DNA of 64,000 bases from Lentisphaerae bacterium GWF2_57_35 (GTDB lineage Bacteria; Verrucomicrobiota; Kiritimatiellia; CAIQIC01; GWF2-57-35), in contig MHBK01000045.1 of the NCBI GenBank assembly GCA_001804865.1, positions 43,946 to 107,945 on the forward strand, read 5' to 3'. A model generated the notes under the pieces. That model worked only from the letters and a program-made list of their open reading frames with translations. It did no database searches and was not told the DNA's origin. The position numbers and the translations under genes were made by a program. This document shows, in pieces, positions 988-58,242 of this stretch (position 1 is the first letter of the stretch; each line of letters opens with the position of its first letter).

Positions 988-1223
988 TTTTTCTCCTTGT
1001 AGGGGTTCGAATGAGAACAGTCGCAGCAGAAGAAGATTTCGTCGGAAAAAAACGCGCTAAACCCGTTTTATGTTCCACTGTAAAATTCTTGTATCGCTTA
1101 AAGACGTACGATATCGTTTTATTGACGATTGGCGTTACCTTGGCCGTCGGAGGCAGTTCCTGAACGCATTCTGGCTTGTACGTGCTGTTCAGTAGTTTTT
1201 CGTTACAAGGGGGGATCTATCTC

Positions 1224-4200
1224 ATGGGGCGTTTACTCAACGGAGACATTCTGAATGTGGCCGCATCTTCTTTATGGGCTCTTTGGATGCCTTTTGCCAT
1301 TTGTACCGAAGCCTTTGCCCAATCAGACGCGCTCCTTTTCTCGGAAAACTTCGAATCGGGCGCCCTAATCAGTAATTGGAGCACTTACTCCACCGGCCAA
1401 GGCCAAATCGAACTCTCCACGAATTTCTCTCCCTGCCAAGGGAACCGGCATTTGGCGATGGACGATATGCAGAGCGACGAGATTTTTTCGCTCAACGAGC
1501 TGGTGTTGACACTCGATCTTTCCGGCTCTTCCAATCTCTGGCTCAGCTTCCATTATCGCAACTTGCATGACGAGACCCATGCCATGCCTGAAGTATTTTC
1601 CGGGCACTGCAATGCCGACGGAGCCGCCGCCAGCAGCGATGGAGGCCTGACCTGGCATCGCTTGGCCGATTTCCATCAAACCGGTTCCGATCTTTACCAA
1701 TTCTTCGACCAAAGACTCGACGGATTGCATCCTGACTTGCATCCCGTCGCCAACTTCATGATCAAGTTCCAGCAATATGACGATGCCCCGGCCGATGAAG
1801 ACGGCCTGGCTTTAGACGACATCCGCGTACGAATGGCCCAGCCGCTTCCTGCGGCGGATCTCGCGATGAATTTGCAAGCGTCCGCCGCTTCTGTCGCGGT
1901 CTCCAATTATTTGCATTACACGATTCGGGTCTGGAACAATGGCCCCGCAGACGCCGGCGGCATAACCATTACCAATTCGCTCTCCGAAAATATCGAGTTT
2001 TTAAGCGCCTCCCCGGGCGGCAGCTACCAAGAAGAACTCCATCAGATCGTCTTTCAAATCCCGTCTCTGGCCAAGTTTGCCGCCACGGAGGTTTCGTTTC
2101 TGGTCAGACCTTGGACAAGTGGAACGGCCTTCGTGACCTCCAAGGCGTCCGGCGCGGGAACGGATCTGACGGCGACGAATAATGAGGCCATCGCAATCGT
2201 CAACATCTTCAGCCCAACCGACCCTGCCGTCGACTTAGCCTTGCAGATGACGGTCCTTGAAGAGACGGAAGATAATTTTACGCTGGGTCTGGCGGTTATA
2301 CCCGGCTCATCCGTTACCTGTCAGGTGGCGGTTGTCCGCATGGATGCCGAGGAAACGGTCGCGTCCAATGTCATGCTCCGGCTCCTCCTGCCGCCTGAGT
2401 CCACCGCCCTATCCTATCCGCCGGGAACCAAACTCTGCGGGCGAGAGCTGCTATGCCCCTTGGGCGATTTGGCCAGCCTGAGCTCCACCAATGCCTCCGT
2501 TATCTTCTCCGTCAGCCAAAGAGGATCGAATTTCATAACGGGTTGGGTCTATTGCGACAGTCCGGAGTCCGCTCCCGCGAATAATGGCGGCGCCAACTCG
2601 GTCTTTGTATCGCCTTCCATTCGGTGGGAACAGGTTTTAGGCAGCGTTGTCGATGGGGAGTACTTGTCGGCCGCCTACATTGGAAACGGAGGGAGCGAAT
2701 TCAAGCTTTTGGACTACGATTCCGATGGCGATTTGGATCTCTTCTCGCCTGGCCAGCTATGGGAAAACAAAGGAACTCGCCATGCTCCCATGTGGACAAA
2801 GCCTAAGAACTTTGGGCTGCCTTTCCAAGGAGACTATGGCGATCTGGATGGGGATGGAGAACTGGAAGCCGTTTGGTGCACACATTCATCCTCAGAACCC
2901 TTCACTACTGATTTATGGCTTACCGACTACGTGTTCAGCAATTCAATCCCTACAGGGTCTTCATCCAATCAGCTTGTAGACTCTTTTTTTACTTCCTGTT
3001 GGCGAAATCCCCCTGTTCTGTGCGACATCGACGGCGATGGGCTTCAAGATCTGTTCATTGACGTCAATACCTATACGGAATCCTACGAATACACAAACAG
3101 CATTTGGTTTTACCACAACACGGGCACGGTTCACGAAGCCCAATGGGCGCCGCCGGACACTCAATATTTGGCATCTTGCGAACACGATTACGTGCGGTTA
3201 CAGTTCTGGGATGTCGGCAACGACGGCGATTACGACCTGATGGTTTTACCCATAGACGCGAATGACTACCACACCAACATCTATTTCTACGAAAACATCG
3301 GCTCCAGGACAACGCCCGTCTGGGCAACGCCCACCCAGATGGAGCATGACGTTGGCTGTGAATTTAAATTTTGGGCCATGCCGGCATTCGGCGACATGGA
3401 CGCCGATGGGGACATCGACATGTTTGCCATGCCCGATCTGCATGGCTGGGTCTACGGTTCCGCCCTTGAGTATTATGAGAATCGCGCGACAAACGGCATA
3501 GCGCAATGGGTCAAGACAGGAAAGCGATTATGGTTCGATGTAGGCAACCATTCGGCTCCCGCCCTCGGCGATGTGGATGGAGACGGCGATCTCGATCTTT
3601 TTGTCGGACGCTACGACTGGACCAGTTCTGTGCCTGGAGATCTCTTGTTCTACCGTAATGAGGGAAGCCCTTCCTGTCCGGCGTGGCAGTTCGAACCCGA
3701 AAAAAGCTTCTATCGCCTTGCCGAAGCGTCCTACCCCAAACCGGCCTTCTGCGATATGGACGGCGACGGGCTTCAGGATCTGTTTGTCGGCACGGATAAC
3801 CAGCTATTGTGCTTTAAGAATACCGGCACCGTGCAGGAAGCGTATTGGGCGGCCCCATTTGCCTATGAAAGCTTGGATTGCACTAACGCCCCCAGCCCCG
3901 CCTTCTGCGACATCAATGGCGATGGCTTGCAGGATTTGTTTGTGACAAAAACTACGGTTGTTTCAATGGGGCCTGGCTGGACTCGCTGGGTTGAGTTGCA
4001 GTGCTACATCAATACCGGCACTTTAACAGAAGCCCAGTGGAGGTTCGCTCCGGAAATGTCTTTCTCCGATACCTACTGGTATCTCGACGGCGTCGCTTTT
4101 TCGGATGCCGATGGAGATGGCGACCAAGATATGCTCATTTCCATGGGAATAGCATTTATGGGGTCCCCCAACTCAAGATGCTTGTTCTTGTATGAAAATT

Positions 4201-7200
4201 TAGGATCGCCAACTAATGCAGTTTGGGCAAAGGATATACGGAATAGATTGCTGATATATAACGATAAAGGCGATGGTTTTACGGGCATAAGCATTGGCGA
4301 TCTGGACGCGGACGGCGATCTGGACTGGTTACTGGGCAACTGGGAAGGAGGGCTTCGTTTCTGCCGCAATACAACGCCGAAGCTTCAGATCTCGCCCTCC
4401 GATCGAACGCTGGAACCGGGAGAGGGCTGCGACTTCGACGCGACAGGCGCTTCCGGCCCGTTGGAGTGGTCCTTCATCCGCAGTACCAGCGGCGGCACTC
4501 TTCAGACCAACAGCGGTCTCTACATGGCCGGGCCCACCAATGGACTGGATATGGTCCAAGCTACGGCAACCAACGGATTGATAGGCCGCGCTTTCATCAA
4601 CGTGATGGGCTCCAATACGCTCCAGAGTTCCGACTGCGCCATATTGATCGCCGGACGCAATACAACCTATTCGTTCGATCCGGTGTGGCGGGCCACCGAC
4701 TACCTGGCCAACTCCGCCTATAACACGCTGCGTTACTTCGGTTATTCCAAGGCCTCGATTCGTTATCTAAGCCCAGTGAGCCAGCAAGACGTCGACGGCA
4801 ACGGGCTCTTCGACGATATCGATTTGGAGAGCGCCCTGGCCCATGTTTCGCAGACGTTCACCAACTGGGCCAACGGCAGCTCCAACCTCTTTCTCTACCT
4901 GGTCGATCATGGAGGAGTCGATGAGGGCATTGGCTACATGCGTTTGAGCCCCGAAGAGGTCTTGAGCGCAACCAGCCTGGCCGTCTGGTTGAACGATCTG
5001 CAAAATACGTACGGCACACGCGTGAGCGTGGTGATGGACTTTTGCAATGCCGGCCGTTTCTTGCCTGCGTTGGCCTGGACCGGCTCCGCCTCCCGCGTTG
5101 TCATTGCCGCCTCGGCGGCCCATGAACCAACCTACTTTGTCGCGGGCGGCTTGGTCAGCTTCTCCGAAACCTTCTTCAATGCTTTGTTGCAGGGCCTCAA
5201 CTTGAACAGCGCCTTTCGCCTGGCCCGCGATGCCGTCAGCGGCTATCAACAGGCTTGCCTGGACGATAATGGCGATGGGGTGTTCGACAAGGATGTCGAC
5301 GGCGCGCAAGCGGCCGCTTCTACGCTTAAAACCTCCGCATCCATCCATCGCGACATCCCTCAGATTGCCGACAGTTCTCCCAATCAAGAATTGAACGGTG
5401 CCGCTTCGGTCGCCCTCTGGGTCTCCGGAGTCTCGGGCGCCTATCCCATCGATGCGGTCTGGGCCATGGTCGTACCGCCCGGCTATAACCCCGACCCAAC
5501 CAACCCGATCGTCGACCTGCCCGAAGTGCCGCTCTACTACAACACGCTCTCCAGCCGCTACGAAGTCTGCTATGACGGCTTCAGCCAGCCGGGAACGTAT
5601 CAAGTGATCTACTACGCCCGCGATGTGTTGGGCAGCATGTCCTTGCCCAAGTACGGAAGCCTCCATCAGAACGGCCTCTCGGAGTTGGCCATCCTGGTCG
5701 CCGGCGGCCCCACCAACTCGCCCGGCTGGCCGGCGATCGACGCGGCGAGCCGGTGCGCGTATCACACCCTGTTGGCCCGTCGTTTCAGCGACGAGAGCCT
5801 GTCCTTTCTTAGCGCAGCCCCTTATCGAGACTTCAATGCCGACGGAACCAATGACGTCGACGGCTCTGTTTCAAGGGCCGCCTTGAGCCTCGCGATCACT
5901 AACGGGGCGGCCGGGGCGGACAAGCTGACGGTTTACCTCACCGGCGTAGGAACCAACGGGACGCTCCAAATGGAGGACGCAGAGCATCTGACGTCCGCCG
6001 AACTCGACGGGTGGCTCGATATCTTTCAAACCAACGGCAGCCCCGTCACCGTCGTCATGGATTTTGCCGGATGCGGAAGCTTCGTCACGAACATGAGCGC
6101 CCCGCCAGGCGCCGAACGCATCCTGATAGCCGGCAGCGGTATCGACGAGCCCTCCGTCCACTATGCCGATCTGGGCTTCAGCCAGATTTTCCTAAGCTAT
6201 CTGTTCAACGGCGCAAATATTCGCGATGCCTTCCGGCAGGCCCGCGACGGCCTCTTCAACTTGACGCACGGCTTGCAAGATCCGCTGCTCGACGACAACG
6301 ACAACGGGACGCCCAACGAAAAGACGGAAGGCGAACGGGCTCGAACCCGCTACATCGGCGCGGCCTTCGTCACCGGCGCCGATACGCCCGTCATCGGCTC
6401 GATCACGCCCGACGCCGTGCTGGCCTCCGACAACGAGCTGCTGTTGTGGGCCGACGAAATCGTCGATGCCGACGGCCTTTCCGCCGTCTGGTGCGTCATC
6501 ACCCCGCCCGACTACGAGGGCAACGAAACCCTGATTTCCGTGGATTTGGCCTGGAACGAAACCACCAGCCGCTATGAAGCCGAATACAGCGGTTTCAGTT
6601 CCCCTGGCGTCTACGCGTGCAGCTTCTTTGCCATGGACGCCCTCGGCGAGATCTCCAGCCCACGCCAATGCGAAGTCCTAAGCGCGGATGCCTATGAACC
6701 CGACAACCATCCGGCTCAGGCCGGCTTCTTCGATCGAAGCGGCTACCAGCACCACAATTTCCATCAAGCCTATGACGAAGATTGGGTCTTCTTCTATGCC
6801 CCCACCGGCTATCCTTTCGAGATCCGCACCGTCCAGCTCGGAACCAACGTCGACACGGTTCTGGAACTCTACCGCCAGAACCCCGACCGTTCGCTCACGC
6901 TGATGGCTCAGCGCGACAGCCAGGGCGCCGGACGCGGCCAAGGCGAGTATCTTTTGCTCGAGAGCCCCACCAACGCCTTCTATTATGTGAGGGCGAGTCC
7001 TTACGATCGGCTCGGAGTCGGCTCTCGCTCCGAATACGACCTGCAAATCGGCATCCCCTCCGCCGGCATCGGCCGCAATCTTATCGTCATCGCCGTGGAT
7101 CGAGTCTTCGCCCGCCCCCTGCCATCCGGCGCCTGGGCCCGGCTCGATGAAGCAACCGCTTATTTCGGCGAGTCCATGAGCCTGGAATTTACCGGTCTTT

Positions 7201-8078
7201 CCGCCGGAACGCATGCGTTGGATGTGCCCTCGCCGGACGGCTATCGTCCCATGGAAGATCCCAAGACCCCCGGCCAAGTTCAAAACGCCGCATCCAGTTA
7301 CGGAAATCCCCGCTCGATCCGGATGTCCGTCGATTCGGCCTGGAACTACGCCTGCTTCTGTTTTGAGCCTTATATCCAAATTCAAGGCCTGGTGCGCGAC
7401 GGATGGAGCCGGCAACGTCTTAACGGTTTGCATCTGAGCTTTACTCCGTTGTCCGGACCGCCGGCCGCCTGGCCCGACAACGTGCATGACGGGTACCCCA
7501 ACGAGGCTGACTACAAGAGCCTTTGGATAACCGAAGACGGCCGGTTTCCCACGAATGTCCTGTTGCCTCCAGTCGATTGGTCGCTCTCTTTGCATCTGGA
7601 TGGCTACAGCAATCGTTTGTTCTCAGCCTTAATCACCAACACGGACGCCGGCCGCCTGATCGACTTGGGCGAACTGAGCCTGCCGCCGCTGGACCAAAAT
7701 GCCAATTCCCTGCCGGACCGTTGGGAAGCCATTGCCTTCGGCTCCATGACCAATGCCGCCGCCGACGACGATTCAGATGCCGACGGCATGGACAACTGGA
7801 GCGAATACCTGACCGGCACCGATCCGGACAATGTCGACAGCCTCTTTAAATTCGACCGCCTCGCGTCCACCACCTCCGATTTTCAATGCGTCACCCTATC
7901 CTGGCAGGCAACGCCCGGCCATGCCTATCGGATCATGGGCTCGGACCATCTTGCATCCAACTCCTGGAGTCTTCTGGCCGGCCCCTGGACCAATCAAACC
8001 CAAACCTTCATGTCCTGGTCCGACACCAACGAGCCGGCCGCCTGCCGATCCTTCCGCGTGGAAGAATCAAGACCATAA
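1224..8078 (+). CDS. giant secreted multidomain protein: DUF11 repeat, ~10 FG-GAP/VCBS repeats, two tandem legumain-like (clan CD, C13-like) caspase-fold domains, pre-peptidase C-terminal (PPC) domain, thrombospondin-type-3-like Ca-binding motif plus ~90-aa C-terminal beta domain
   Basis: The ORF 1176-8078 has no stops. ATG at 1224 (MGRLLNG...WMPFAICTEAFAQ, signal peptide) is preceded by AAGGGGGG. One Asp-box (SSDGGLTW). DUF11-like segment (LHYTIRVWNNGPADAGGITITN). Repeated CDIDGDGLQDLF / GDVDGDGDLDLFVG FG-GAP/VCBS motifs. FLYLVDHGGVDEGIGYM ... VSVVMDFCNAGRF matches the legumain His-Gly ... Cys arrangement. A second copy is LTVYLTGVGTNG ... VTVVMDFAGCGSF. The PPC domain is YEPDNHPAQAGF...YDEDWVFFYA...EYLLLESPTNAFYYVRASPYD. 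The C-terminus is DDDSDADGMDNWSEYLTGTDPDNVDS then ...CRSFRVEESRP. Confidence 0.85.
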   Translation: MGRLLNGDILNVAASSLWALWMPFAICTEAFAQSDALLFSENFESGALISNWSTYSTGQGQIELSTNFSPCQGNRHLAMDDMQSDEIFSLNELVLTLDLSGSSNLWLSFHYRNLHDETHAMPEVFSGHCNADGAAASSDGGLTWHRLADFHQTGSDLYQFFDQRLDGLHPDLHPVANFMIKFQQYDDAPADEDGLALDDIRVRMAQPLPAADLAMNLQASAASVAVSNYLHYTIRVWNNGPADAGGITITNSLSENIEFLSASPGGSYQEELHQIVFQIPSLAKFAATEVSFLVRPWTSGTAFVTSKASGAGTDLTATNNEAIAIVNIFSPTDPAVDLALQMTVLEETEDNFTLGLAVIPGSSVTCQVAVVRMDAEETVASNVMLRLLLPPESTALSYPPGTKLCGRELLCPLGDLASLSSTNASVIFSVSQRGSNFITGWVYCDSPESAPANNGGANSVFVSPSIRWEQVLGSVVDGEYLSAAYIGNGGSEFKLLDYDSDGDLDLFSPGQLWENKGTRHAPMWTKPKNFGLPFQGDYGDLDGDGELEAVWCTHSSSEPFTTDLWLTDYVFSNSIPTGSSSNQLVDSFFTSCWRNPPVLCDIDGDGLQDLFIDVNTYTESYEYTNSIWFYHNTGTVHEAQWAPPDTQYLASCEHDYVRLQFWDVGNDGDYDLMVLPIDANDYHTNIYFYENIGSRTTPVWATPTQMEHDVGCEFKFWAMPAFGDMDADGDIDMFAMPDLHGWVYGSALEYYENRATNGIAQWVKTGKRLWFDVGNHSAPALGDVDGDGDLDLFVGRYDWTSSVPGDLLFYRNEGSPSCPAWQFEPEKSFYRLAEASYPKPAFCDMDGDGLQDLFVGTDNQLLCFKNTGTVQEAYWAAPFAYESLDCTNAPSPAFCDINGDGLQDLFVTKTTVVSMGPGWTRWVELQCYINTGTLTEAQWRFAPEMSFSDTYWYLDGVAFSDADGDGDQDMLISMGIAFMGSPNSRCLFLYENLGSPTNAVWAKDIRNRLLIYNDKGDGFTGISIGDLDADGDLDWLLGNWEGGLRFCRNTTPKLQISPSDRTLEPGEGCDFDATGASGPLEWSFIRSTSGGTLQTNSGLYMAGPTNGLDMVQATATNGLIGRAFINVMGSNTLQSSDCAILIAGRNTTYSFDPVWRATDYLANSAYNTLRYFGYSKASIRYLSPVSQQDVDGNGLFDDIDLESALAHVSQTFTNWANGSSNLFLYLVDHGGVDEGIGYMRLSPEEVLSATSLAVWLNDLQNTYGTRVSVVMDFCNAGRFLPALAWTGSASRVVIAASAAHEPTYFVAGGLVSFSETFFNALLQGLNLNSAFRLARDAVSGYQQACLDDNGDGVFDKDVDGAQAAASTLKTSASIHRDIPQIADSSPNQELNGAASVALWVSGVSGAYPIDAVWAMVVPPGYNPDPTNPIVDLPEVPLYYNTLSSRYEVCYDGFSQPGTYQVIYYARDVLGSMSLPKYGSLHQNGLSELAILVAGGPTNSPGWPAIDAASRCAYHTLLARRFSDESLSFLSAAPYRDFNADGTNDVDGSVSRAALSLAITNGAAGADKLTVYLTGVGTNGTLQMEDAEHLTSAELDGWLDIFQTNGSPVTVVMDFAGCGSFVTNMSAPPGAERILIAGSGIDEPSVHYADLGFSQIFLSYLFNGANIRDAFRQARDGLFNLTHGLQDPLLDDNDNGTPNEKTEGERARTRYIGAAFVTGADTPVIGSITPDAVLASDNELLLWADEIVDADGLSAVWCVITPPDYEGNETLISVDLAWNETTSRYEAEYSGFSSPGVYACSFFAMDALGEISSPRQCEVLSADAYEPDNHPAQAGFFDRSGYQHHNFHQAYDEDWVFFYAPTGYPFEIRTVQLGTNVDTVLELYRQNPDRSLTLMAQRDSQGAGRGQGEYLLLESPTNAFYYVRASPYDRLGVGSRSEYDLQIGIPSAGIGRNLIVIAVDRVFARPLPSGAWARLDEATAYFGESMSLEFTGLSAGTHALDVPSPDGYRPMEDPKTPGQVQNAASSYGNPRSIRMSVDSAWNYACFCFEPYIQIQGLVRDGWSRQRLNGLHLSFTPLSGPPAAWPDNVHDGYPNEADYKSLWITEDGRFPTNVLLPPVDWSLSLHLDGYSNRLFSALITNTDAGRLIDLGELSLPPLDQNANSLPDRWEAIAFGSMTNAAADDDSDADGMDNWSEYLTGTDPDNVDSLFKFDRLASTTSDFQCVTLSWQATPGHAYRIMGSDHLASNSWSLLAGPWTNQTQTFMSWSDTNEPAACRSFRVEESRP

Positions 8079-9885: not shown

Positions 9886-11012
9886 AAATGCTCTCCTTGT
9901 TTCGATGGCTGCGCTGCCCCCTGTCCCACAGTTGAATACCCAGTAATGTCCACGATGAATATATCCGGCTGGCAGTATATCCGAACAGGCGGATTCGCGG
10001 CGCCCACTCCGCTGGCCACGAACAAATGGGTTCCATGGACCACAAAATGCCCATGATCGAAACGTCTTCCATAAAGAGAGGGAATCACCACGGGTCCCAG
10101 CCAGGGAATTCGAGCTTGCCCTGCATGGTAATGCCCGGAGAAAACGCCGTGAACAGACGCGCGACTCAAGCGATAGATGTTGTCCGGCGTATGAGAAAGC
10201 ACAAGATGCAGCCCCTGCCCCTTCGTATCCGGAAAATCCGCCGGCCGCTCTCCCCAGGGATAATCCCAACCCGTCAGGAGTATTTCATGCCCCTCCAAAT
10301 CGAGCCGGAGGGTCTCGTTGCGCAACAGCGTCACGCCCGCGTTGCGAATAACCGAACGAACTTTGTCGGCGCCCGCCCAGTAATCGTGATTCCCCAGCAC
10401 CGCAAAAGTCGATCGTCGGGCTACAGGCCGCAAAACCTGCTCCAGTTCGGGCAAGGCTTCGGCCTTGGTTACAAAATCCCCCGTCATAAATGCATAGTCC
10501 GCCTGCGCATCTTCAGCCACAGACAGCACATTGCGGAAATACTCCGCCGGGACCTTCGGATTTACATGAAGATCGCTGAGGTGGACGATACGAAATGCTG
10601 GCCCCTGCCAGGAAGGCAAGGAAATCTCATATCGATGAACCACTGCATCGGTGGTCGTGAAGGGCCGAAACAAGCCCACTTGATGTGGAATACTGTCGAC
10701 GGGAGGACTGCCTTTGCATTGTCGACGTATCCATAGCCTCCGGCATTCGCCCATCAGACACAATAGTATAATCCCCGCCGGAACCCCCATCCAGCCGGCG
10801 GCGGGCAACACCCAGCCCGCCCAGGCAAGACCACCGGGAATCACAACAAAAAGCAGGAGAACAAGCGGCGTCTTGTACCGGCTGTCGCGCATCAGAATGG
10901 CGTACCGGTTAAGGATAAACAAAAAAACACATAAACCCGCCAAACCCGAAAGCAACACCGATATGATCGATTCCATCCGCATTTTTGTACATGCCTCAAA
11001 ATTGTTACGCAT
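9882..11012 (-). CDS. membrane-anchored metallophosphoesterase (calcineurin-like, YkuE/YaeI-type)
   Basis: Two to three N-terminal TM helices, then the phosphoesterase motifs IVHLSDLHV, GDFV, LGNHD, GHYH and GHFVVHGTHLF. An alternative start MRMESI lies ~30 nt downstream. Confidence 0.8.
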   Translation of the reverse strand: MRNNFEACTKMRMESIISVLLSGLAGLCVFLFILNRYAILMRDSRYKTPLVLLLFVVIPGGLAWAGWVLPAAGWMGVPAGIILLCLMGECRRLWIRRQCKGSPPVDSIPHQVGLFRPFTTTDAVVHRYEISLPSWQGPAFRIVHLSDLHVNPKVPAEYFRNVLSVAEDAQADYAFMTGDFVTKAEALPELEQVLRPVARRSTFAVLGNHDYWAGADKVRSVIRNAGVTLLRNETLRLDLEGHEILLTGWDYPWGERPADFPDTKGQGLHLVLSHTPDNIYRLSRASVHGVFSGHYHAGQARIPWLGPVVIPSLYGRRFDHGHFVVHGTHLFVASGVGAANPPVRIYCQPDIFIVDITGYSTVGQGAAQPSKQGEHL

Positions 11013-11067
11013 AAGCTACTGCGGAATAGCGAACGGCGTCAATGAGCCAAACAACCGAAACAGCATC

Positions 11068-11188
11068 CGCGCATACGAATAAGAATCCACGTCCTTACGG
11101 ACGCGGCTACGTAGCCGCCGGCGTAAGCCGGTGGTTTCTTTCCAGTGCCAGACGTTGAGGAGGGGCCGTGTCAAGATGCCTCGTTGAC
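11068..11188. repeat. copy A of a ~125-bp near-identical structured intergenic repeat (copy B at 58243-58371)
   Basis: Direct comparison shows about 95% identity with 58243-58371. It contains hairpin ccacgtcc-ttac-ggacgcgg, the perfect 12-bp palindrome GGCTACGTAGCC, hairpin ccggc-GTAA-gccgg, then GAGGAGG. It lies 72 nt upstream of the + strand gene at 11261, in a divergent intergenic region. Confidence 0.8.
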
Positions 11189-11260
11189 TTCAACTAATTT
11201 ATAGTTAATATAGCCGCCGAATCCCAAAACCGACAGGGGTACAAAAAAGGAAAGGATACC

Positions 11261-11833
11261 ATGAAGAAGCTTTGTTGGATGGCTATCGTAGTTGCAGCGA
11301 CGACGTTAAGTTCCTGGGCGGCGCAAGATCATTCGCTGACCAACGCAAGTTTTGAAAGCGGGAACTTCGACGGCTGGCAAATGTTTGGCAAACATTGGCG
11401 TACCAGCGCCAATATGGCCAACGAAAAATACACCGATGCGCACAGCGGGACCATGGGCGCCGTGAACGACGTCATGCCCGTCGACACCGATATGATGCAA
11501 GACGAATGGCGGGGCTTGTTCCAATCGGTCCGAGCCAAAGCAGGCAAGGAATACATCGCCGGGGCCTGGATTAAATCCATGAACACCAGCTCCACCGAAT
11601 CCTATGTCGAACTCCAATTTCTCGACAAGGCCGGCCAGGTAATAAAATTCGTGCAATCGGATTTTGTCACGTCAGACCAGGACTTCACCTGGGTCGTCAC
11701 GCCTCCCACCGAGGCGCCGCAAGGAACCGAAAGCGCCAATGTCCGCGGCATCGTGCATATGATCGGTCCCGTGACCAACGACCCGGCTTACCACATCTTC
11801 GACGATTTCGAGTTCAAGCGCCCAGAAAAATGA
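11261..11833 (+). CDS. secreted carbohydrate-binding-module-like protein (CBM4/9/22-type beta-sandwich)
   Basis: Signal peptide MKKLCWMAIVVAATTLSSWAAQ followed by NASFESGNFDGW, the hallmark motif of CBM4_9-type domains. A strong AAGGAAAGGA SD is present. Confidence 0.65.
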   Translation: MKKLCWMAIVVAATTLSSWAAQDHSLTNASFESGNFDGWQMFGKHWRTSANMANEKYTDAHSGTMGAVNDVMPVDTDMMQDEWRGLFQSVRAKAGKEYIAGAWIKSMNTSSTESYVELQFLDKAGQVIKFVQSDFVTSDQDFTWVVTPPTEAPQGTESANVRGIVHMIGPVTNDPAYHIFDDFEFKRPEK

Positions 11834-11862
11834 CGAATCATCCTCCAGGGGGAGGAAGCGTG

Positions 11863-12576
11863 TTAAGCCGTAAGTCCGCGGCTCCACGCATCGAGATAAC
11901 GGGATATTTTGGAATGAACCCTGGCCCGCGCTTCGCGCCGGGCCAGGCCTCCGGTCAGCAAGTTGTCGTATTCCGTTTCGGCATGCCGAATGTGGGCAAT
12001 GACCGCCAGACGTACAGCGTCCTCGCTGAGCGCCTTTGCGGCGGCGCTGCGCCCCACGCGACCGCTATACTTCCGGCAGGCATGCTCGGCAATGAGCCGT
12101 TCGCGCCCTTCGGGGCAACAAGGGAAAAGCTCCCGCACGCGGACGGTAAATTGCGCGATATAGGTCTGGTCGAGTTCGGCCCTCCGAAGTTCCGCCTGCG
12201 CCCGGCGCACGTCGCGGACTTGCGCATCGCCCTCGCACTCCCGCTCCGCACGCTCCAACGCCTCGTCTTCGACCAGCACCCCCTGCCGTTCGTAGCGCTT
12301 GCGGGCCCGGCTCCATTTCACGACCACCACGGATAACGACGAATATTTCCGCGAACGCCGCGTCAGGGCCGTATCGCCGGACGGCAGATAAACCAAATGG
12401 TCGTAGTCGGCGCAACTCAGGCAGACCGCTTTGCGATCTTCTTTCAGTGAAATCCAGGCATGGTTTCCCAACTTCGCGCCACATTCGTCGCAGGCGGACT
12501 CCTGCGTAGTGATAAAGACCACCAGATCGCCTGGTTTTCCCGTGCTAAATTTGTTTTTGGGTCCTTCCTCCGACAT
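11863..12576 (-). CDS. DUF2293 family protein with N-terminal CxxC...CxxC zinc ribbon
   Basis: CDECGAKL...CLSCADYDH zinc ribbon, and a C-terminal ...AVIAHIRHAETEYDNLL... region resembling DUF2293. Recalled from memory, not searched. Confidence 0.6.
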   Translation of the reverse strand: MSEEGPKNKFSTGKPGDLVVFITTQESACDECGAKLGNHAWISLKEDRKAVCLSCADYDHLVYLPSGDTALTRRSRKYSSLSVVVVKWSRARKRYERQGVLVEDEALERAERECEGDAQVRDVRRAQAELRRAELDQTYIAQFTVRVRELFPCCPEGRERLIAEHACRKYSGRVGRSAAAKALSEDAVRLAVIAHIRHAETEYDNLLTGGLARREARARVHSKISRYLDAWSRGLTA

Positions 12577-12691
12577 AGAGCCTCCGTTCGTTGATTTTTT
12601 AGCGTTTCTCCGTTTTGTGGAGCAACTCTATTTACGGGCCATCGCCCACTTCTCGCCGGCAATTGAAATGCAGATATTCTCCTATCTACCT

Positions 12692-12722
12692 CATAATCAT
12701 AATCTTAATCGTAATCCTAATC
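12692..12722. repeat. five tandem hexamers (N)TAATC: cATAATCATAATCtTAATCgTAATCcTAATC
   Basis: Read directly in the divergent promoter region between the DUF2293 gene (-) and ychF (+). Confidence 0.7.
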
Positions 12723-12849
12723 TCCTTCTGAATACTGTCGAAATAGACTTGAGCCGTTCGATGCGTCTTGACTCATAATTACAATTGCTGACTTCTCGCT
12801 GGCTTTCCAAACCCTGTAGGATTAAATATCCCCCAAGGAGAAAAGGACC

Positions 12850-20911: not shown

Positions 20912-20937
20912 CATGCCTTCACCGGACCGCGACGGAA

Positions 20938-23900
20938 CTACGGGCTCATGAAGCGGGTCGGCAGCGTATAGATCAATTTGTTCGTCCAGACCCAGTCGTT
21001 GGTGTGCGTCGCAGCGATCACGATGCCGTCGTCCGGCGTGAAGCAATTATACCCCACGATGGCCCCGTTAACGCCAGACGCCTCGCGCCAGGTCATGTCG
21101 GAGGTCTTATACCAGATCCCGGCGCCGCTGACCTGTTGATTGGCCCGGTCGTATTTCAGGAGCTTATCCGAATGGCTCGGGCGCAGGCCGCCCTTGAAAC
21201 CGGACTCGAGCAAGTTCATCTGGCTGGGATGGACATTCCTGGGCAGCCCGAACGAGACCAGATTATACGCGGGACTGGCCATCGTACCGCCCTTGATCAA
21301 CTGCTCTTGCGTGTTGGTGGGAATGCGCCCAATAAACAAGGAGGTCTGGGCCGTTGCGTCTTCGGGAATTTCGATCACGACGCCTTCGTTCAGCGGCACC
21401 AGCATGTCGTCCGCATTTTCATCCCCGGATTGCCACTGCAAGGGCGACGACGACAACCAGATGGTCTGCGTCGCCGTTGCGATCGAACCCCGTTTGTGCC
21501 AGGAAACGCGCGTCGAGAGCAATTCGCTCTCGCCGCTGGGCAAATTATGCCCAAACACCCGAAACGCCGTGCAGGTGTCGGGAACGCCCGGGAAAGACAC
21601 CCAATTGAACCCGGGTTTCAAATGAATTGCTTTGAGCGCATAGATGCCTTCGCTGGCCACCCGGCGCCATTGGTTGGTCATCCACCGGTCTTTCTGGGCC
21701 GCGCGGTAAAAGCGCATATTGTTGCCCAGCATCCGCGGCGGCGAGCGGCCCGCGTCGACATCTCCCGTGTCGCAGAGCATACAGGTCACTCCGCGTCCCG
21801 CCAACTGCCATCGATTGCTCAAGGCCGCCGAGAAATCCGACGCATCCGTGTAAATCAAGTCGTACTCGCGCCCTTCCGCGGCCGTCCAGGCGATCTCGGC
21901 CCGGCCCAGATCCGTGGTGGCCACCGCGACGCCCTGCGTCACGAAGAAGCCCGAGAGCAGCACATTGTGCGGGTCGGACATCGGGCCTTCGTTGCCGGCC
22001 GCATCGACGCCGGCAATGGCCACATTATAATCTATGCCGAAGACGAAGTTGCTCAACGTGATCGCCTCGGTCAGCCGGTTGCTCAATGCGGGATTGTCCT
22101 CGAACGTGAAATGCGGGCTGTTCGTGGTCGGAGCCGTGTTGTCGTCGGTGTAATAAATCTTGTAGGACCGCCAGGGCGAGAGCGGATCGGCGCCGACGCC
22201 CCCGCCGTTGTTCGGCCGGCTCCACGTCAGATCGATTTCGGAGGTGTCGTCGAACGAGCCGGGCGCGACGACCACATTCATGATTTGCGTGGGCGCCACG
22301 CCGTCGTACATGATGACGAAGTTGGTGTTCGGGCTCTTCAGGCGGTCGCTCAACCGGTCGTCGTCGTCGTCCACCGCAAAGAACCAATTCGTCGTGATGC
22401 CGTTGGGGGCATTGGTGTAGATGACCCCGCCGATGCTCTGCACGGAGACGGTGACGGACAGATGGTCCCAGTAGCCGGTCGAAGGCATCTGCGAGTTATG
22501 CCCGCTGATGCCGCAACTCAGGCGGATGAACTCGGTGTCGGCCGTGGCATTGGTCACGGTCATGAGGGCCTGCGTCCAGACCGCCGCGTTCACGCCCACC
22601 AGCGGCGAGCCGTTATGATCGTCGTCCCATTCGTTCTCCACGATCCACGTCCGGACCGAAATGGCGTTGAAGCCTTCCGCCTTCAGGAAGCCGGCGGCGT
22701 AGTTGTTGCCGACTCCGACCCGGCTCAAGTCGCCCTTGAACCAACCGCTGAAGGAAATGAAGGGCCGCAGCCGATTGGAGTTGTTCAGATAGATATCCTG
22801 GGAGCAGAGGGTATAGCGCGGGGAGCCATCCGCCCGCGTGCCGGCCGCGATGATATGCCGCGTGGCCAGCGTCCCCTCCTGACCGCCCGCCTCGTCGGCA
22901 AAGTTCAGATAGCCTCCATCCGAGACAAACGATCTCCAGTTATTGACGGAGTCCGGATCGGCGGGAATGCTCAATTCGTCGGAGCCCACCTCAAAGCTGG
23001 CGTTGCTGATCAGGGTGGGCAGATAATTGGTTACATACGTCGCCGCCAGCGGCTCGCCGTCGATCGTCAGCGAGGGCTCGGCCGTGTTGGTCGACACGCG
23101 ATATTCCGAAATGCCCGACGCATCCAGGGACGGATCGAACGCCAGCACGAAGTGATTCACGTTGGTCCATCCATACGGCGTCATGACGATATTCGACGGC
23201 GTCGTGGGCTCGACGACATCGTCGTCAACGACCAGGAACGTGTTGGTGCTGTAAAGAATATTCGTGCTGTTCAGCGTCTGCAGCCGGTCGCTGGCGCGAT
23301 CGCTGTCCTTGTCGGTGGCAGACCATACGAACGAATACAGGCCGGTCGTCACATCCGCATAGCCCACGCCGGGCGCAGCGCGCCCGACGGTCCAAATGTT
23401 GCTCGCCCCCACCCGGTCGGTATAGGTCCAGCCCACGGCCGTGTGAACCATCGCGCCCACCGCATTGATCAGGCTGTAGTTGGCCGCGAAGTATTCGCCT
23501 TCGGTGGAGAGCGCCACTTCGCTCTCGTCCGCCAGCACCATGTTGATGTTCCACAACCCGAACCGGATGTCGCTGTCGGTCATCTGCTGGCCATTCTTGA
23601 TGTGCAATTCGCTGGCCGCGGGGGCGTTGGTGTCGTCGTCGATAATCCGCAGATAGCCGTACTGCTTATTGGTCGCGACCAGATAATCGCCGGCCCGATC
23701 GTTATCGGCGTCGTACAGCGTCGCCAGAATCCGCATGGGACCGGCCGCGATCAGGTCGTTAATCTCGGCTCCGCTCAGGGTCCACTTCCAGACGCTGGCG
23801 GCGCCGTCGCTCGTCGAGTCGGCGGTGCTGTCCGCAGCCGAGTAGTTGGCCACATTGTTTGCGGCGAAGCCTTCCACCGTCACGTTCATTTGCGTGGTCG

Positions 23901-26900
23901 CGCTCGACGCGCCCCGGGCCAGGCCGCTGTCGGGATCGTAGCCGCCGAAAAGCAAACTCAGCGAATTTGTGCCCAACTGCGAATCGAAGATCGTGAAGAC
24001 CGCGTTGGTGGACGCGTCGCTGGCCTCGATATACACCTCTCCGACTTTGACGGCCAGCGGAGGCGTCGGCCCGAACATGACGTCGTCAATCTGCAAGCCG
24101 CCGCCCTGGGCCGTGCCCGCGGAGCCCATGCCGCTGGCGGCGACGACGAGCCGCGCCCAGGCCGTGCCCACCGGCGAGGTCTTGGACAGGGAGACCTGCG
24201 TCCAGACCTCTCCGGGCGGCGTGAAGGATTGGGCCGCCGAGTCGATCATCGTGAACCCCGCGTCGAAGAACTCGATCTTCACCTCGCAGACCACCGCGGT
24301 AAACACATAAAGCCCGGGCCCGCCGCCCACCCCGTTGTCGCTCCAGAACCAGGCGGAGCCGTTCCACAGCGTTCCGTCCGGCGAGGTGTTGGCCGCTTGC
24401 TGCCAGATTCCGGCATTCGTTCCCGGCGACCAGGCGTTCAAAGACATTTCATAGGCGCCGCTGCGGGCGCGCCAGTTCTCGCGCGTGGCCGTGCCCCACC
24501 AATTGCCGCTTTCGTCCGGGAAGCCGTAATCCCAGCCGTAGGCTTTATACGCGGTCCCGCCCATCAGCTCGAAGCTGGAATTTTTCAGGCGCGTGCCGCC
24601 GCAGGAGCCCACCACGGGGGCGCTCGCGTCGTCGTCGCTGACCGCCAGCCAGCCGGCCTCCAGCACGGCGGAGGCCTGGTCCAGGTTGCGGTCGTTGTCC
24701 GCGTCGTAGACCGCCAGCGTGATCTGGTTGCTCTGCACGGGAAGCACGGAGAGCAACTCGCCGACCTGGTCGTAGGTGAAGGAGGTGTACACCCAGGTGC
24801 TCGTCGGACTGAGCAGGGCGTCCTTCGTGTGCTCGTAGGGGGAACTCCAGTCGACGGAACCCCGGAAGTTCGCCGTGTTGTTGGTGATCGTCGCGCCCAC
24901 GCTCATATGCGTGTTGGTGAGGGTGTGCCCGTTGACGTTGGCGGTGAAGGTCGTGCCCCGCTGCAAGCCCAGGATGTTGTCGCGGCCCAGGTCGTAGGTA
25001 TGGAACCGGAACTGCAATAGGTTGGTCTCCGACACGCCGGCCAACTGGCCGTCGGTAATCTGGAAAATCTGGTTGGAGCTGACGATATTGGTTTGCGGCG
25101 TCGGCGGAATCCACAGGCTGGACGCCGCGGTCTGCAGGCTTGTCCCGCCCAGCCACACCAGCAGCGAGGCGTTGGTGTTGCGCAACGTCTGCAAGGCCGG
25201 CGCGGTCGGATCGTTGTCGCGCCAGGCGATATAGCCCAGCTGCCAATCCGTCCGGCCCAGGCTGTCGTCGGGCCGGTCCGTGTCCCGGTCCGTCACCGAA
25301 ATGCTCACCCGGCTGGTCGTCTCCATCAACGCGGCAATTTGCACGTCCGAGAAGCTGGCAAACGCCCAGACGCTGGTGGCAAACAGGTTGTTGGCGTTGT
25401 CGAGCGAACTGCGGCCGGCATTATAGTTCGCATAGTTGTCCGTCACGTAATTTTCGACGCTGACGGTCATGTTCGAGCCGCCCGTCTCGCTGCTGAGGGC
25501 GCAGCCGCTCAAGTCGTAGAGGTTGAAGTGCAGTTCCACGTTCGTCGTGGCGGCATGGACCATGTGCTTGTCCGTCACGTACCAGACGCGATTGCTCTGC
25601 GAGCCGGCGCCTTGCGGAAAATCGTCGCCGACGAAGGGCGCCATCGCGCCGAACAAGTGCGCGCTGCCCGAGAGATTCGTCAGAAATTGGAAGGCAGTTC
25701 CGTACCGCGGTTCGGAAAGATCGTCGTCGAAGACCGTAAAGGACAACGGCACGTTGGTGGACTGTTCATCGCCAGGCCGATCCCAGTCGTTATCCGTAAC
25801 GGAGACCGAGCCGGTATAGGATCCCAAAGCGATGGCCGCGCGATTCACCGCCGGCAGTGCGACGGCCAACGGCATGGCCGTTTGCCCCTGCCCGTTGACG
25901 GTGGGCCCTGTCGTGAAGGCTTGGTTCGTGAAAAGTTGCGACCCGTCGGGGAAGAAGATGTTCACCCGAGGCCCCAAGGGTTCGCTAATCGACAGCAGCC
26001 CATTGCCCACATCCCGCACCAAGCCGGTGATGACACAGGTCCCCTCGGCCAAGTCGCCGTCCCCTATATAGCCCAAGCCTTTGATGGGACCAACCGTTCC
26101 TTGAAAACGCACGTTATCAATGGTCCATGGCCACTCGGCCGCGGCGTCGGCTATTCCGGCAAGACGCCATGTAGAATTTCCCGTAAAAGGAGCAGAGTCG
26201 AGGGGCTTGTTCATCGTCGCCCACAAGTCGTTGGTTGCCAGGCGAACAGGAGGATTAGTATCGACGAGAAATGCTAATCCTACTCTGAATGACCATAAAT
26301 CTACGATGGGAGTGTGATAGTCAAAAGAGACATTGGTTAAGTTCAGAGAGAACCCGGCATCCATCGCAAAGCGTCCCATAAAATAGGAAACTCCTCCTCC
26401 CCAATGCATCCACCCTGCCGAGGCTTGCGCTGCGCGACCGGGATTCCCGGCCACGCCAGTTAGGATGTCGGGAGCCCAGTCATGGAACCAAATCGGAGCG
26501 GGATCCAAGCGTTCCAACGCAAAGGTCGGGTTGGTCGTAAGCGTCTCGCTGCCGAAATCGTAAAACAGCAAGGTCCCCGACTTATACAAAGACGAACCGG
26601 ACACATCCAGCGACGAGATAACGGGCGCGGTCGTGTCGTCATCCGCAAAACTCAGCACGCCGAACTGTTGGTTGGATAAGGCCAACTGATCGGCCGGCCG
26701 ATCCGCGTCGGCATCGCGCACCGTAGCGACAATCTTGACGCTGCCCAGGGACAGCAAGGCGTTGATCTGATCCACGCTGAACGAATCGAATTCCCAAACG
26801 TTGGACGAGAGCACCGTCTTGGTTTCCTCGAAGGGACTGCTCTTGTTCGGGCAGAAATTCGCGACGTTATTCGTGCATAGGCCCTCGATGCTCAGATTCA

Positions 26901-29900
26901 TTTCCGCTGCAGGATCGGTCGTCCCGCGCAACAACCCGCTGCGTCCTCGATTGTCTGCGTCCAGAACACCTAGTCTGATGTGTAAGGGATTGGTGGATGC
27001 CACCCTGTACAAACTTTCATCAGACAGGTAAAAGATCGTGTTGGTAAACGTCTCCGTGCCGCGAATATACATCCCATCGACCGATGTAGGCACAGAAGAC
27101 GTGCCAATGCGGACATCGCACAAATCCACACTTTCCCCCACAAATGCATCGTCCCAGTAAATATAATAACCCTCAGGCCCTTCCAAGTGTGTTGGATAAT
27201 CCACAGAGTAACCAAAACAAGCCCGAACACTCTTCGTACCCGGAGGGGTATATATCGAATGAGTCAACCGCCGCCATGATGTAGTCACAATGGCCGAGAG
27301 ATCCACCTGGTTCGTAAGCAATTGATTGCCGTAATAGAGGTTGGTGCTGTCATAACATTCGAGTTTGAGATATGTGCACAGCCAGGAACACGGCGCCTCC
27401 TGGTTTCTCATGCTCATAATCGAAAACGTATACCATTTGCCCTCCGTTGCCGGGATGGGCCTCCAAATCGTTTCATAAGTCTCCGCTTCTGTATATATTC
27501 GCAAGCAATGCGCGCCCCCCCCAGGAGCCCCTCCTCCCTGCCATAGCACTCGACCTGTAGATGAGACCCAATTGGAACGCGTATGAACGGGATTGGTCGT
27601 ATAAAAGATGTCATTTATTTCAAACGATGGATTTATCAGCAGGTTCGTCGCATAGAAAGTCGGATAATTCGAATCGTCGTCAATCACATTGAACTGCAGC
27701 CAGTCGTTGAGCTGGAAGGCCCGGTCGAACGAGACTTGGTGCGCCAACCCATCGACCGTATCCCCGTAGACGCCGCGGTCGTTGTCGGCATCCTGTGAAC
27801 TGGTCTGAATCCGCCATACGCCTACCGTACGAGCTGCGAATGGAATCTGCACGTCAAACAAAGTGGTGGTCGCATACAACGATCCGTTGCCGGACAGGCT
27901 GTGAATATTCTCCGGCGAGACGAGCACGTCGGTCAATAAGTCCTCGCCGGCAGGGTTCACCAGGTCCCAGTTCAGATTGACGTTGCCGCCCGCACTGCTG
28001 TCCGCATTGGTGGCGTCGGCCACCTGATTGGTGAGAAACACGCCCGAGGGATCGAACGTCTGGTATACGATGTCAAGCCCGTCCGTCAGCGCATCGTCGT
28101 AGATGGTATTGGTATAGGTCTGGCCGGCGACGTAATTGGAGCCGGCATATATCAGCCAGGACCTGGGGCCGTTGGTGTCGTCGTCGACGACCTGCATCCG
28201 GCCGAATTGCCGGTTGACCATCCAGGCTTCATCGCCGGGCCGGTCCGCATCGGCGTCCGGGCCCGACACGCTGACAGGGAACTCTCCAGCCGTCAGCAAC
28301 TGGTGAATCTGGCCGGTCTCGGCGCCGGGCGCCGAAAGATAAGTTGCCGTGAAATAGACATGACTAAAAACGCTGGTAGCGGACGAGCCGGTGGTGTCGG
28401 CGGAACTCAGGTCCGCGCGGTAGGTGTTGTAGAGGTTCTGAAATTCGCCCAAGCCGCCCAGGTCGTAGTTCATCCATTCGCTGGCGGCGCTGCGTTGAAC
28501 GGAATTGGAGTCCCAGGCGGCGAAAACGAACTTGAACAAATCCGTCGACGCCGTCGCCGCCAGATCGCCGTCGGTGGCGACAAACAGCGCATTCGTGCCG
28601 CTGCCCGAAGTGTAGAAGCTGCGGCCGCGGTGCACGATGTCCATCGCGGCATTGGTCACCACGCGCAGGCAGGTCTGGTCGATGCTATAAGCGCCGGAAC
28701 CGCCCAGGCCTTCGGCATAGATGACCCACCGGATCCAGGCCGTGTTGGCCGGCGAGGTCGCCGTCATCGACGCCAAAGTCCACGTGGCGCCGGGATCGGC
28801 AAATTGATTGGTATAGGCGGCCAGTTGATTGACTCGGGTCCCGTCGTAGAACTCGATCTTGAGGCCATGACCCGTGTCCGTCGCATTATTGTATATCATG
28901 GCAGACGCTTCGAACACCGCCCCCGCCCCGCAGTTATTGGTCGCTTCCTGCCAGAAGCCGCCGGAATCCCCGGCGCCGGCCCATGTGCCGCAAAGCGCGC
29001 CCAATTGGTTGCCCCAGTCGGTCGGCCAGTCCCTGCGAGACGCGGAGCCCCACTTGCCGCCGTGCAGAAACGGCGACTCGCCATCGAACGAAGTGCCGAT
29101 CGTCTCCCAGTATTTGGGCGTCAAGGCATCGTTGATCGACTCCTCGAATCCGGGATTGCGCAAGAGGTTGCCGGGTTGAAGCGTTCCGGTTTCCGGGGGG
29201 AAAGGATCGTTATCCGTCACCTTCAACCACCCGACCATAAAGGCGCGCTCTATCTGGTCGCCCACTCGGTCGAAATCCGCGTCTCTCAAATAAATCCAGA
29301 CTTCGTTGCTGACGGCCGCGAGCAGATTATCCAAGGTGGCGGAACTCATACTCGTAAATTGCCAGGCATTGGTGGCATCCAGGCCGGTTGTCGTCGAGGA
29401 GCTATACGCCGCACGGAAATCGGTCACATTGCGATCCGTCACATTCTCTATCGAGATGGAGGTGTTGGTATCCGCATCCGTGGTTCCTCGAGCCAGACCG
29501 CTATACTCGTCATAGGCGGCAAAGACGAAACGCAAGGGGGTTGCTTCCGAAATTCCTACCAACTCGGCGTCCGACAGCTCGTAGACCAGCTTCCGAGCAT
29601 TCAACTGGACATTGTCAAAGATGTTGTGGCCACTGGTAGCCGCGCCCATGAGCGTACAACGAATGAAGACGGACGTGGCGCCGTTTAGCCGAGGGACGTT
29701 CGAAAAGTCGATCGTTTGAACCGACCAAGCTGTCTGGGTAGTGATCTCTTTGGGTATGGTCGTGTGGTGCGTAAAGTTGCTGCCGTCACAACTCCACGAC
29801 CATTGCTGATTGGTGGCGGCGCTTTCTGTACCCTTGAGCGCATAGCTCACCACCAAGTCCCGGTGCCCGCCCATGGATATTTCGAACTGGAAGTGCTTGT

Positions 29901-39957: not shown

Positions 39958-40140
39958 TAGTCGTAGAAAAATCCGGCTTCGTTACCTTGAGCAAAAAAAA
40001 GTTTGGAGAGGAACGGATTCGCATATTTGCGAAAATTGTTTTTGACGTAGAGGGCGGATTTTCCAGTTGTTAGCCCATATAGTGCATGAGCTGTGTGGAA
40101 AAGGAGAAGTCGGCTCGTAAACGCGGAAAGGGCTTTCGAC

Positions 40141-40243
40141 GGACCGCCGCGGAACAACGGGCTTATGAAGCGGGTCGGCAGCGTATAGATCAACTGGGCA
40201 GCCCGAACGAGACCAGATTATACGCAGGACTGGCCATCGATCA
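40141..40243 (-). pseudogene. degenerate fragment of the 3' end of the 19-kb gene (3' UTR plus last 13 codons fused to a 51-bp patch from 260 bp further upstream), located just upstream of that gene's own start
   Basis: 40141-40192 nearly matches 20925-20976 (..cgggctYatgaagcgggtcggcagcgtatagatcaa; encodes IYTLPTRF[M/I]SP with the stop TAG changed to TTG). 40193-40243 nearly matches 21238-21288 (ctgggcagcccgaacgagaccagattatacgcRggactggccatcg). Confidence 0.75.
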
Positions 40244-40316
40244 TACCGGGTGCATCCGGACACTGCCGCAGATTTCTGTTTCCAACCCAAAGGAACTGCT
40301 GCTTACGGACGGCTAG

Positions 40317-57779: not shown

Positions 57780-58242
57780 GTGCGTCCTTATAGCTCTTCC
57801 AAATCGATTGATTTCAACCCCAATGCGTATCCCATACAAGACGTTAAGCAAGCCTAATCAAAACGAATGCGAAATGCACGGCAAATTATGAACATTGGCT
57901 GCTTCAACGACCGATGCTCTTCGCCAGGAAACCAGCCGCCTCTTCCATAACGCATGAAGACCCGACTCTCTTACGCTTAATGCTAGTTGTATACTAGTTG
58001 CTTTCATATAAATCAAGCGGTTTTTCCGTGAAAAAGAAAAAAGATGGGTGTTCGCAATCTTCGTACGCATACGATGCCTTTCGCCCAGGCTTGCAAGGAG
58101 CCGCGACGTCCCCGTAACGCCTCCGCAGTTCTCTTTTATCGGCAACGGACGGCGAGATCGACGAGGAGAGCGTCCACGGCCTCGAACCGCCGTCATGATG
58201 AAAAACTGGCTGAGCCAGCCTGGGGTGCATCTTGACACGGCC

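Follow-up and report, generated by a model that had tools for sequence, protein, structure and literature searches.

Two distant intergenic regions of the DNA analysed here, a 64-kb stretch from Lentisphaerae bacterium GWF2_57_35 (hereafter the window), carry nearly the same short, hairpin-rich sequence. The initial annotation of this stretch left several readings side by side, namely a small RNA, a cis-regulatory leader, a micro-protein gene and a MITE-like repeat. What kind of sequence is this, and by what route did it come to lie at both sites?

Two copies in the window

Direct alignment and a repeat finder agree that the window contains two copies of the repeat, termed A and B, which are ~95% identical, lie in the same orientation and have unrelated flanks, as had been annotated. 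The repeat finder groups them as family D5, pairing 11057-11169 with 58234-58346 at 95%. The differences listed initially, two substitutions and one 2-nt indel, also reappeared in the alignment, the substitutions being C/T at CATA[C/T]GAAT and C/T at GTAGC[C/T]GCC. Searching the 64-kb window with the family profile via nhmmer returned no copies beyond these two.

The coordinates first assigned were nearly right for both copies, except that copy B reaches 20 nt further to the left and spans 58223-58358. Moreover, its 23-nt terminal inverted repeats (TIRs) and the 8-bp direct repeat CCAGCCTG at its flanks had been overlooked. Copy B is a complete MITE of 136 bp on the + strand (family mode 138 bp), matching the family profile at positions 1-137 with E = 1.5e-47, and the family alignment places it in register with 28 other full-length copies. 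Its left TIR, GGGTGCATCTTGACACGGCCTCC (58223-58245, + strand), was read from the sequence and is conserved in the family alignment. The right TIR, GGAGGGGCAGTCAAGATGCACCC (58336-58358, + strand), was assigned from both sequence and alignment; the 2-nt indel is a deletion within it. Directly outside the TIRs, the target-site duplication CCAGCCTG is read from the sequence on the left side at 58215-58222 and on the right side at 58359-58366. Copy B is an intact insertion.

Copy A (11067-11182, + strand; profile match positions 12-135, E = 2e-42) is a MITE remnant without ~22 nt of the left TIR, and is thus presumably immobile. It is an older or damaged copy whose left end is gone. Its right TIR, GGAGGGGCCGTGTCAAGATGCCTC (11159-11182, + strand), was located by sequence comparison with copy B, and the 16-nt centre of this repeat is the exact reverse complement of the left TIR of copy B. 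The two window copies fall in different subfamilies, which are defined by two linked substitutions (CCCCCGCGCATACG vs CCTCCGCGCATATG).

A dispersed family with target-site duplications

We collected further copies as exact matches to a 26-base core pattern in JGI metagenome contigs. This yielded 55 matches in 53 loci from two JGI metagenomes (individual loci carry L numbers below). The pattern thus occurs at dozens of loci, with flanks and target duplications of their own. Given that the copies were gathered by an exact core match, the near-invariance of the core is uninformative about selection. The unique full-length copies number 29, with a modal length of 138 bp (range 127-145) and the 138-bp consensus GGGTGCATCTTGACACGGCCCCCGCGCATACGAATAAGAATCCACGTCCTTACGGACGCGGCTACGTAGCCGCCGGCGTAAGCCGGTGGTTTCTTTCCAGTGCCAGACGTTGAGGAGGGGCCGTGTCAAGATGCACCC. 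Compared pairwise, they are on average 92.5% identical; when the stretch that the pattern fixed is set aside, the figure is 91%. Recent spread or selection had already been inferred from the two window copies, and the ~91-93% identity among dispersed copies bears out the recent spread.

In-register display and alignment of the copies revealed sharp common ends, GGGTGC...GCACCC. The family TIRs read GGGTGCATCTTGACACGGCC(C/T)CC and GGAGGGGCCGTGTCAAGATGCACCC, with the outer 11 nt nearly invariant. Immediately outside these ends, 15/29 full copies carry flanking 9-mers that agree with each other at no fewer than 8 of their 9 positions. Allowing a 2-nt slide of the boundary raises the agreement to 20/29, and an offset control gave 0/29; a clear target duplication is missing in 9/29. 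Examples of the duplications are GTCGTCATA, GTTCCGCTC, GATTGCGGC, CTCTTAATC, CCATGCACT, ATCCTCTCA and ATTACCATC. TIRs combined with 8-9-bp duplications of variable sequence indicate insertion by a staggered-cutting transposase, and hence a MITE. The MITE-like option of the initial annotation is thereby borne out by the TIRs, the 8-9-bp target-site duplications and the dozens of dispersed copies. Element size and TIR length also fall within the ~70-300 bp and ~15-30 bp, respectively, that characterise MITEs.

Contigs from two independent assemblies of the window's organism (NCBI DNKJ01000102.1 and a Logan contig) start within the element, at a point 33 nt short of its right end, as expected for a multi-copy repeat. 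When one genome per species was scanned with a 19-mer, five matches appeared, all in unrelated taxa; this is approximately the chance number, and the rest of the element was absent from them. Viral contigs scanned for the inverted repeat and the core gave no match, nor did a plasmid collection searched by blastn.

Both TIRs are hypervariable at GACACGGCC (columns 12-19 and 127-133 of alignment A3), where one AC/GT unit is lost and G/T and A/G changes occur. The left TIR carries a 2-nt deletion in five copies, and in 5/5 of these the right TIR has its own 2-nt deletion too. This pattern may reflect recurrent slippage at ACAC/GTGT, or some process that keeps both ends alike.

A REP dimer at the core

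The hairpins and the 12-bp palindrome recorded initially are present as described. They belong to a 48-nt core composed of two 24-nt units in inverted orientation with their GTAG tags inside (CTAC abutting GTAG). The core lies at 58264-58311 in copy B (GTAGCTGCCGGCGTAAGCCGGTGG on the + strand, the T variant, and GTAGCCGCGTCCGTAAGGACGTGG on the - strand) and at 11087-11134 in copy A (CCACGTCCTTACGGACGCGGCTAC followed by GTAGCCGCCGGCGTAAGCCGGTGG). Two REP units placed tag to tag account for the 12-bp palindrome and for both GNRA hairpins. The palindrome, which had been taken for a candidate dimeric binding site, is instead the junction of the two units, GTAG to GTAG; the tag-to-tag palindrome extends over 12-16 bp, and over 16 bp in copy A.

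GTAG-type REPs are defined by a short palindrome headed by the tag GTAG. The core units agree with this type, as each is an imperfect palindrome within the 20-40-nt range and bears GTAG at one end. The + strand unit reads GTAGCCGC-CGGC-GTAA-GCCG-GTGG and the - strand unit GTAGCCGC-GTCC-GTAA-GGAC-GTGG, the CGGC/GCCG variant being counted 36 times and the GTCC/GGAC variant 49 times. The two units of the core differ at three stem pairs, 3/3 of them compensated, and a third compensated stem variant, CGCC/GGCG, was found elsewhere in the loci. Predicted folding energies of the single units are -15.5 to -19.4 kcal/mol. Each unit has a GUAA loop and is followed on its own strand by a U-rich tract, UUUCUUU for the + strand unit and AUUCUUAUU for the - strand unit.

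REP units also occur outside the MITE, as singlets (L011 3806, L022 10648 and L039 3271), as a dimer whose units stand 13 nt apart (L014 4969-5042) and as bare 48-nt dimers (L037 and L040). Most REP copies nonetheless lie inside the MITE, and a search of the loci for MITE shells without the REP core found none. With most REP dimers inside a TIR-bounded element that makes target duplications, the dimer has probably spread by hitch-hiking.

Genomic setting

Both window copies lie between divergent called genes, in line with their initial placement in divergent promoter regions. This placement is not a property of the family: tandem gene pairs surround 18 copies, divergent pairs 13 and convergent pairs 8. 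The copies are dispersed mainly in intergenic DNA: under a crude ORF model of the metagenome loci, long ORFs cover ~89% of the DNA, yet 46/55 core matches lie outside them. In the window, 78 nt separate the end of copy A from the ATG at 11261. For copy B, the distance to the start of the sigma-factor gene is 99 nt if this is the TTG at 58457, and 147 nt if it is the GTG at 58505 of the ENA gene call. A TTGACA box stands 8 nt downstream of copy B, ahead of the sigma-factor gene. Directly after copy A is a promoter-like site, TTGACT-16-TAATAT (11184-11211, + strand), which is also conserved in the orthologous, element-free locus L063. As L063, from a related organism, keeps this promoter-like stretch without the element, the promoter belongs to the host, and copy A landed just upstream of it.

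L063 was the sole orthologous locus and is too diverged, so that no nucleotide-exact empty site was recovered. Sigma-factor homologues considered for an empty-site comparison were either 100% identical or at most 47% identical, with nothing between, and no presence/absence pairs were found among the loci.

Several other features of the window were observed. Downstream of copy B, a partner-switching-like gene cluster opens with the sigma factor and further includes a STAS protein and a kinase/GAF/SpoIIE protein of 1705 aa. By exact-protein comparison, this sigma factor is identical to a GWF2_57_35 entry, and the YchF of the window is identical to entries under the names 'Lentisphaerae bacterium GWF2_57_35' and 'Verrucomicrobia bacterium', in agreement with a metagenome-assembled PVC bacterium. 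Giant ORFs with internal repeats dominate the window, at 1176-8078, 20938-39957, 40317-49148 and 59835-63992, encoding 2300, 6339, 2943 and >1385 aa, respectively. A run of TAATC-type hexamers, CATAATCATAATCTTAATCGTAATCCTAATCT, occupies the intergenic positions 12686-12725 upstream of ychF, and similar runs are found in L020, L030, L035, L051 and L057; it is another dispersed short repeat.

Sister elements and nested insertions

The related loci contain sister MITEs of 136 and 313 bp, which have the same inverted repeats (GGGTGCATC..GACAC.GCCGCAGA) around other interiors. The 136-bp sister holds a different GTAG REP dimer. In the window, sequence comparison identified an isolated left inverted repeat, GGGTGCATCCGGACACTGCCGCAGA, at 40248-40272 on the + strand, which belongs to a sister MITE family. 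This solo repeat adjoins a 116-nt fragment (40132-40247) homologous to 20915-20976 and 21239-21284, which are separate 3'-end pieces of the giant gene 20938-39957. The arrangement at 40132-40272 suggests an element-associated deletion or rearrangement between two giant genes.

The related genomes are rich in further GTAG-headed REP families, such as GGTAGGG + GACGGCGCTCCGTCGCCGTCC and GTAGGAGCCGCAACCC, which are also seen in the flanks of many loci. They occur either free or as dimers in 136-bp MITEs that share the TIRs studied here (L024 1498-1634, L038 3371-3507, L059 1008-1144 and L051 ~6406-6542). Several copies of the studied MITE are inserted into such REP hairpins, with the target duplications GTTCCGCTC and GGTCGCGAC.

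A second MITE family in the related loci, absent from both window copies, has ends of the form CTGTCT(C/T)TTATACACA(A/T)AT. At ~17-18 of 19 positions these IS50/Tn5-like ends match the Tn5 mosaic end / Nextera adapter. A single nucleotide position of the REP GTAA loop is entered, with the duplication GGCGTAAGC(C), at 10 or more places. Both orientations and several different interiors are represented among these, which indicates independent site-specific insertions. The sites are L014 12261, L020 10222, L021 5208-5476, L024 1189-1435, L027 6954-7223, L036 11859, L039 ~3271, L049 8824-9364, L057 3720 and L059 4467. In addition, the Tn5-like MITE lies within the small palindrome GGGGCGAGGTCGCCCC in L046. 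Nextera contamination was considered as a source of these ends and rejected: their sequence varies, no adapter sequence follows them, and they stand as inverted pairs around interiors of 150-650 bp with duplications of their own.

Alternative explanations

Several readings other than a MITE were weighed against the same data. The repeat might primarily be a structured RNA whose TIR ends only close a stem, whether a small RNA, a cis-regulatory leader or an intrinsic terminator that acts in both directions and was spread by duplication. Strong predicted folds speak for it (copy B, z = -5.7 for its + strand and -4.5 for its - strand; core, z = -4.9 for either strand), as do the U-rich tract behind each REP hairpin, a terminator-like site that a scan called on the - strand in both copies, and a mild orientation bias among copies between tandem genes (13 to 5, p = 0.10, not significant). 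Both strands, however, fold equally well, a result to be expected from palindromic DNA, and the outer 15+5-bp stem that encloses an inner three-hairpin junction in the predicted fold of copy B is formed by the inverted repeats. An RNA gene would leave no 9-bp target duplications, and each window copy precedes the promoter-like site of its + strand neighbour, outside the leader. Rfam gave no match at the gathering threshold over the whole window, and only chance-level matches at E up to 10 around copy B. The covariation term was +0.13 kcal/mol with a double change in 1/44 pairs, in a set of 29 copies that are too similar to each other and have a core fixed by the search pattern, so that this term weighs neither for nor against an RNA role. 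We regard an element that is primarily an RNA as improbable. A micro-protein gene is a far poorer candidate still, with a probability close to nil. The 27-codon frame for (M/T)NKNPRPYGRGYVAAGVSRWFLSSARR is open in 23/29 full copies, but such openness follows from the GC-rich palindromic sequence. Its start codon is not conserved (ATG in only 12/29, ACG in 15/29 and AAG in 2/29), and neither a Shine-Dalgarno sequence nor another ribosome-binding site was seen upstream. Most of the few substitutions alter the amino acid (N>Y, N>K, P>L, W>R, F>L, S>F/R/N/G). The frame is broken by frameshifts or premature stops in 6/29 full copies, and one more has lost 6 nt in frame; the changes listed are three frameshifts, two premature stops and this one deletion. 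The tiny ORF noted after GAGGAGG opens within the right inverted repeat and enters flanks that are different in every copy. Neither frame is a gene, and the element bears no coding signal. As for a chance segmental duplication, or a part of a longer duplicated gene segment, nothing beyond the two copies themselves favours it. The match persists on re-alignment and is not part of a longer duplicated segment, the flanks are unrelated, and the 55 further core matches have flanks and target duplications of their own; we discount this reading altogether.

The remaining alternative concerns the enzyme. The whole unit could be REPIN-like and be moved by a RAYT or TIRYT tyrosine (Y1/HUH) transposase rather than a DDE enzyme, which we consider very improbable, more so than an RNA. 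Its core is indeed a GTAG-tagged REP dimer, and PMC3733652 describes both REP dimers inside longer palindromes and families of repeats that stem from the inverted repeats flanking Y1 genes. The related metagenomes moreover contain a Y1 transposase gene resembling those of RAYTs (L046 10971-12035; Pfam Y1_Tnp 3e-8, NCBIfam REP_Tyr_transpos 46 bits). The studied family, however, has 8-9-bp duplications of variable sequence, which argue against Y1-type insertion. Y1 enzymes of the IS200/IS605 type are not known to duplicate their target on insertion, and the L046 enzyme accordingly probably does not move the MITE. The gene itself sits between unrelated 28-nt inverted repeats (GGGGTCAGCCC...) and its 46 bits lie under the RAYT cut-off of 80 bits; for these reasons, together with the target duplications, it was set aside as the mobiliser. 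No genes flanked by GTAGCCGC REP units were found in the loci.

The L046 Y1 unit spans 10946-12084 and comprises a 352-aa, weakly RAYT-like Y1 (IS200-like) transposase ORF with its 28-nt inverted repeats. These repeats start with GGGGTCAG, which corresponds to the motif GGGGWSAS, a motif reported for 'TIRtrons' in PMC3733652. An ORF fragment similar to the L046 enzyme lies at L009 1-495.

A putative model of mobilisation

The best explanation overall is a MITE: the repeat is very probably a non-coding element that carries a REP dimer as cargo and would be moved in trans by a transposase acting on its TIRs. We searched for a transposase bounded by the family TIRs and found none, either in the window, whose ORFs were scanned with Pfam, or in ~480 kb of related loci. 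TIR pairs 0.4-4 kb apart in the loci all proved to be adjacent or nested small elements, and an all-against-all comparison of the ORFs of the loci gave no multi-copy transposase. With no autonomous partner in the window and the ~480 kb, mobilisation in trans by a DDE-type transposase is what we infer. Judged by duplication length, IS903-group IS5, IS1, IS256, IS4 and ISLre2 are candidate families for the partner.

In this putative model, a transposase encoded elsewhere in the genome would bind the ~23-25-bp TIRs. Insertion would then proceed by a 9-bp, sometimes 8-bp, staggered cut, the repair of which would leave the flanking direct repeats, and the central 48-nt REP dimer would travel as cargo. 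Once inserted, the element may influence its neighbours. Most plausibly, the core, with its A-tract, GC hairpins and U-tract, would act as a bidirectional terminator or an RNA-stabilising hairpin, roles that have been put forward for REPs and other MITEs.

A more elaborate version is conceivable but less likely than not. A DDE-type MITE shell might have captured a REP dimer, or been invaded by one, which it then spreads by a cut-or-copy process, while the REP loop in turn hosts the Tn5-like MITE. This uncultured PVC bacterium would then harbour a nest of three layers. With each insertion, the REP core might also supply a portable bidirectional terminator.

Discussion

The element compares well with MITEAba12 of Acinetobacter (PMC6382973). 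MITEAba12 has 113 bp against 138 bp here and 16-bp inverted repeats; both elements are small and non-coding, bear TIRs, lie mostly in intergenic DNA and occur as highly similar copies. They also share 9-bp duplications in part of the copies (40% there and 15-20/29 here) and possible effects on neighbouring transcription (PMC6382973). On the other hand, the TIR sequences are unrelated (GGCTTTGTTGCACAAA in MITEAba12 vs GGGTGCATCTTGACACGGCC here), and MITEAba12 is 78% AT whereas the present element is GC-rich (PMC6382973). MITEAba12 further has the partner ISAba12 and observed transposition (PMC6382973), while no partner of the present element was found in the window or the ~480 kb of loci. Unlike MITEAba12, the present element contains a central REP dimer. 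Correia/NEMIS, RUP and ERIC are other comparable elements, listed in PMC3733652.

The core resembles GTAG REPs, BIMEs and REPINs (PMC3733652, PMC3116915, PMC3479197) in that its 24-nt units consist of a GTAG tag, an 8-bp stem and a 4-nt loop, in that the stem variants are compensated, and in that singlets and spaced dimers also occur. In the nomenclature of PMC3733652, it is a 'TT' heterodimer, with tags inside. It differs from them in that the REP dimer lies mostly inside a TIR-bounded element that makes target duplications, and in that a search of the loci revealed no RAYT gene with these REPs on its flanks. Partial precedents come from PMC3733652: the verrucomicrobium Opitutus terrae has REP dimers whose units lie 1-2 bp apart, and two other species have such dimers within longer palindromes. 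The latter share the present architecture of inverted-repeat arm, REP dimer and arm, and there, as in the loci searched here, the arms were never encountered without the REP dimer. The passages of PMC3733652 considered read the palindromes as insertion targets and make no mention of target-site duplications, whereas here the duplications mark the whole unit as mobile. Insertion sequences that target REPs are likewise on record, cited in PMC3733652 (its ref. 12) and exemplified by ISPpu9 (PMC8450116); the likeness lies in the Tn5-like MITE, which lands in the REP GTAA loop and is an element separate from the MITE studied. Judged by these comparisons, the element is an ordinary bacterial MITE in kind, and its REP-dimer cargo and nesting are less ordinary, with partial precedents in PMC3733652.

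These results remove a false lead, in that the two window sites contain no micro-protein gene and probably no new small RNA or leader. They also carry practical implications. Repeats that pile up in intergenic DNA beside promoters can pass for regulatory motifs. Such repeats break short-read assemblies, and two public assemblies end inside this element. Natural Tn5-like ends would, in addition, be lost to Nextera adapter trimming.

In summary, this study documents a young multi-copy MITE family, previously unannotated, in an uncultured bacterium of the PVC superphylum. All the kinds of element involved were already known. The REP-dimer cargo combined with site-specific MITE nesting makes this family a compact natural system for mutual exploitation among REPs, MITEs and insertion sequences.
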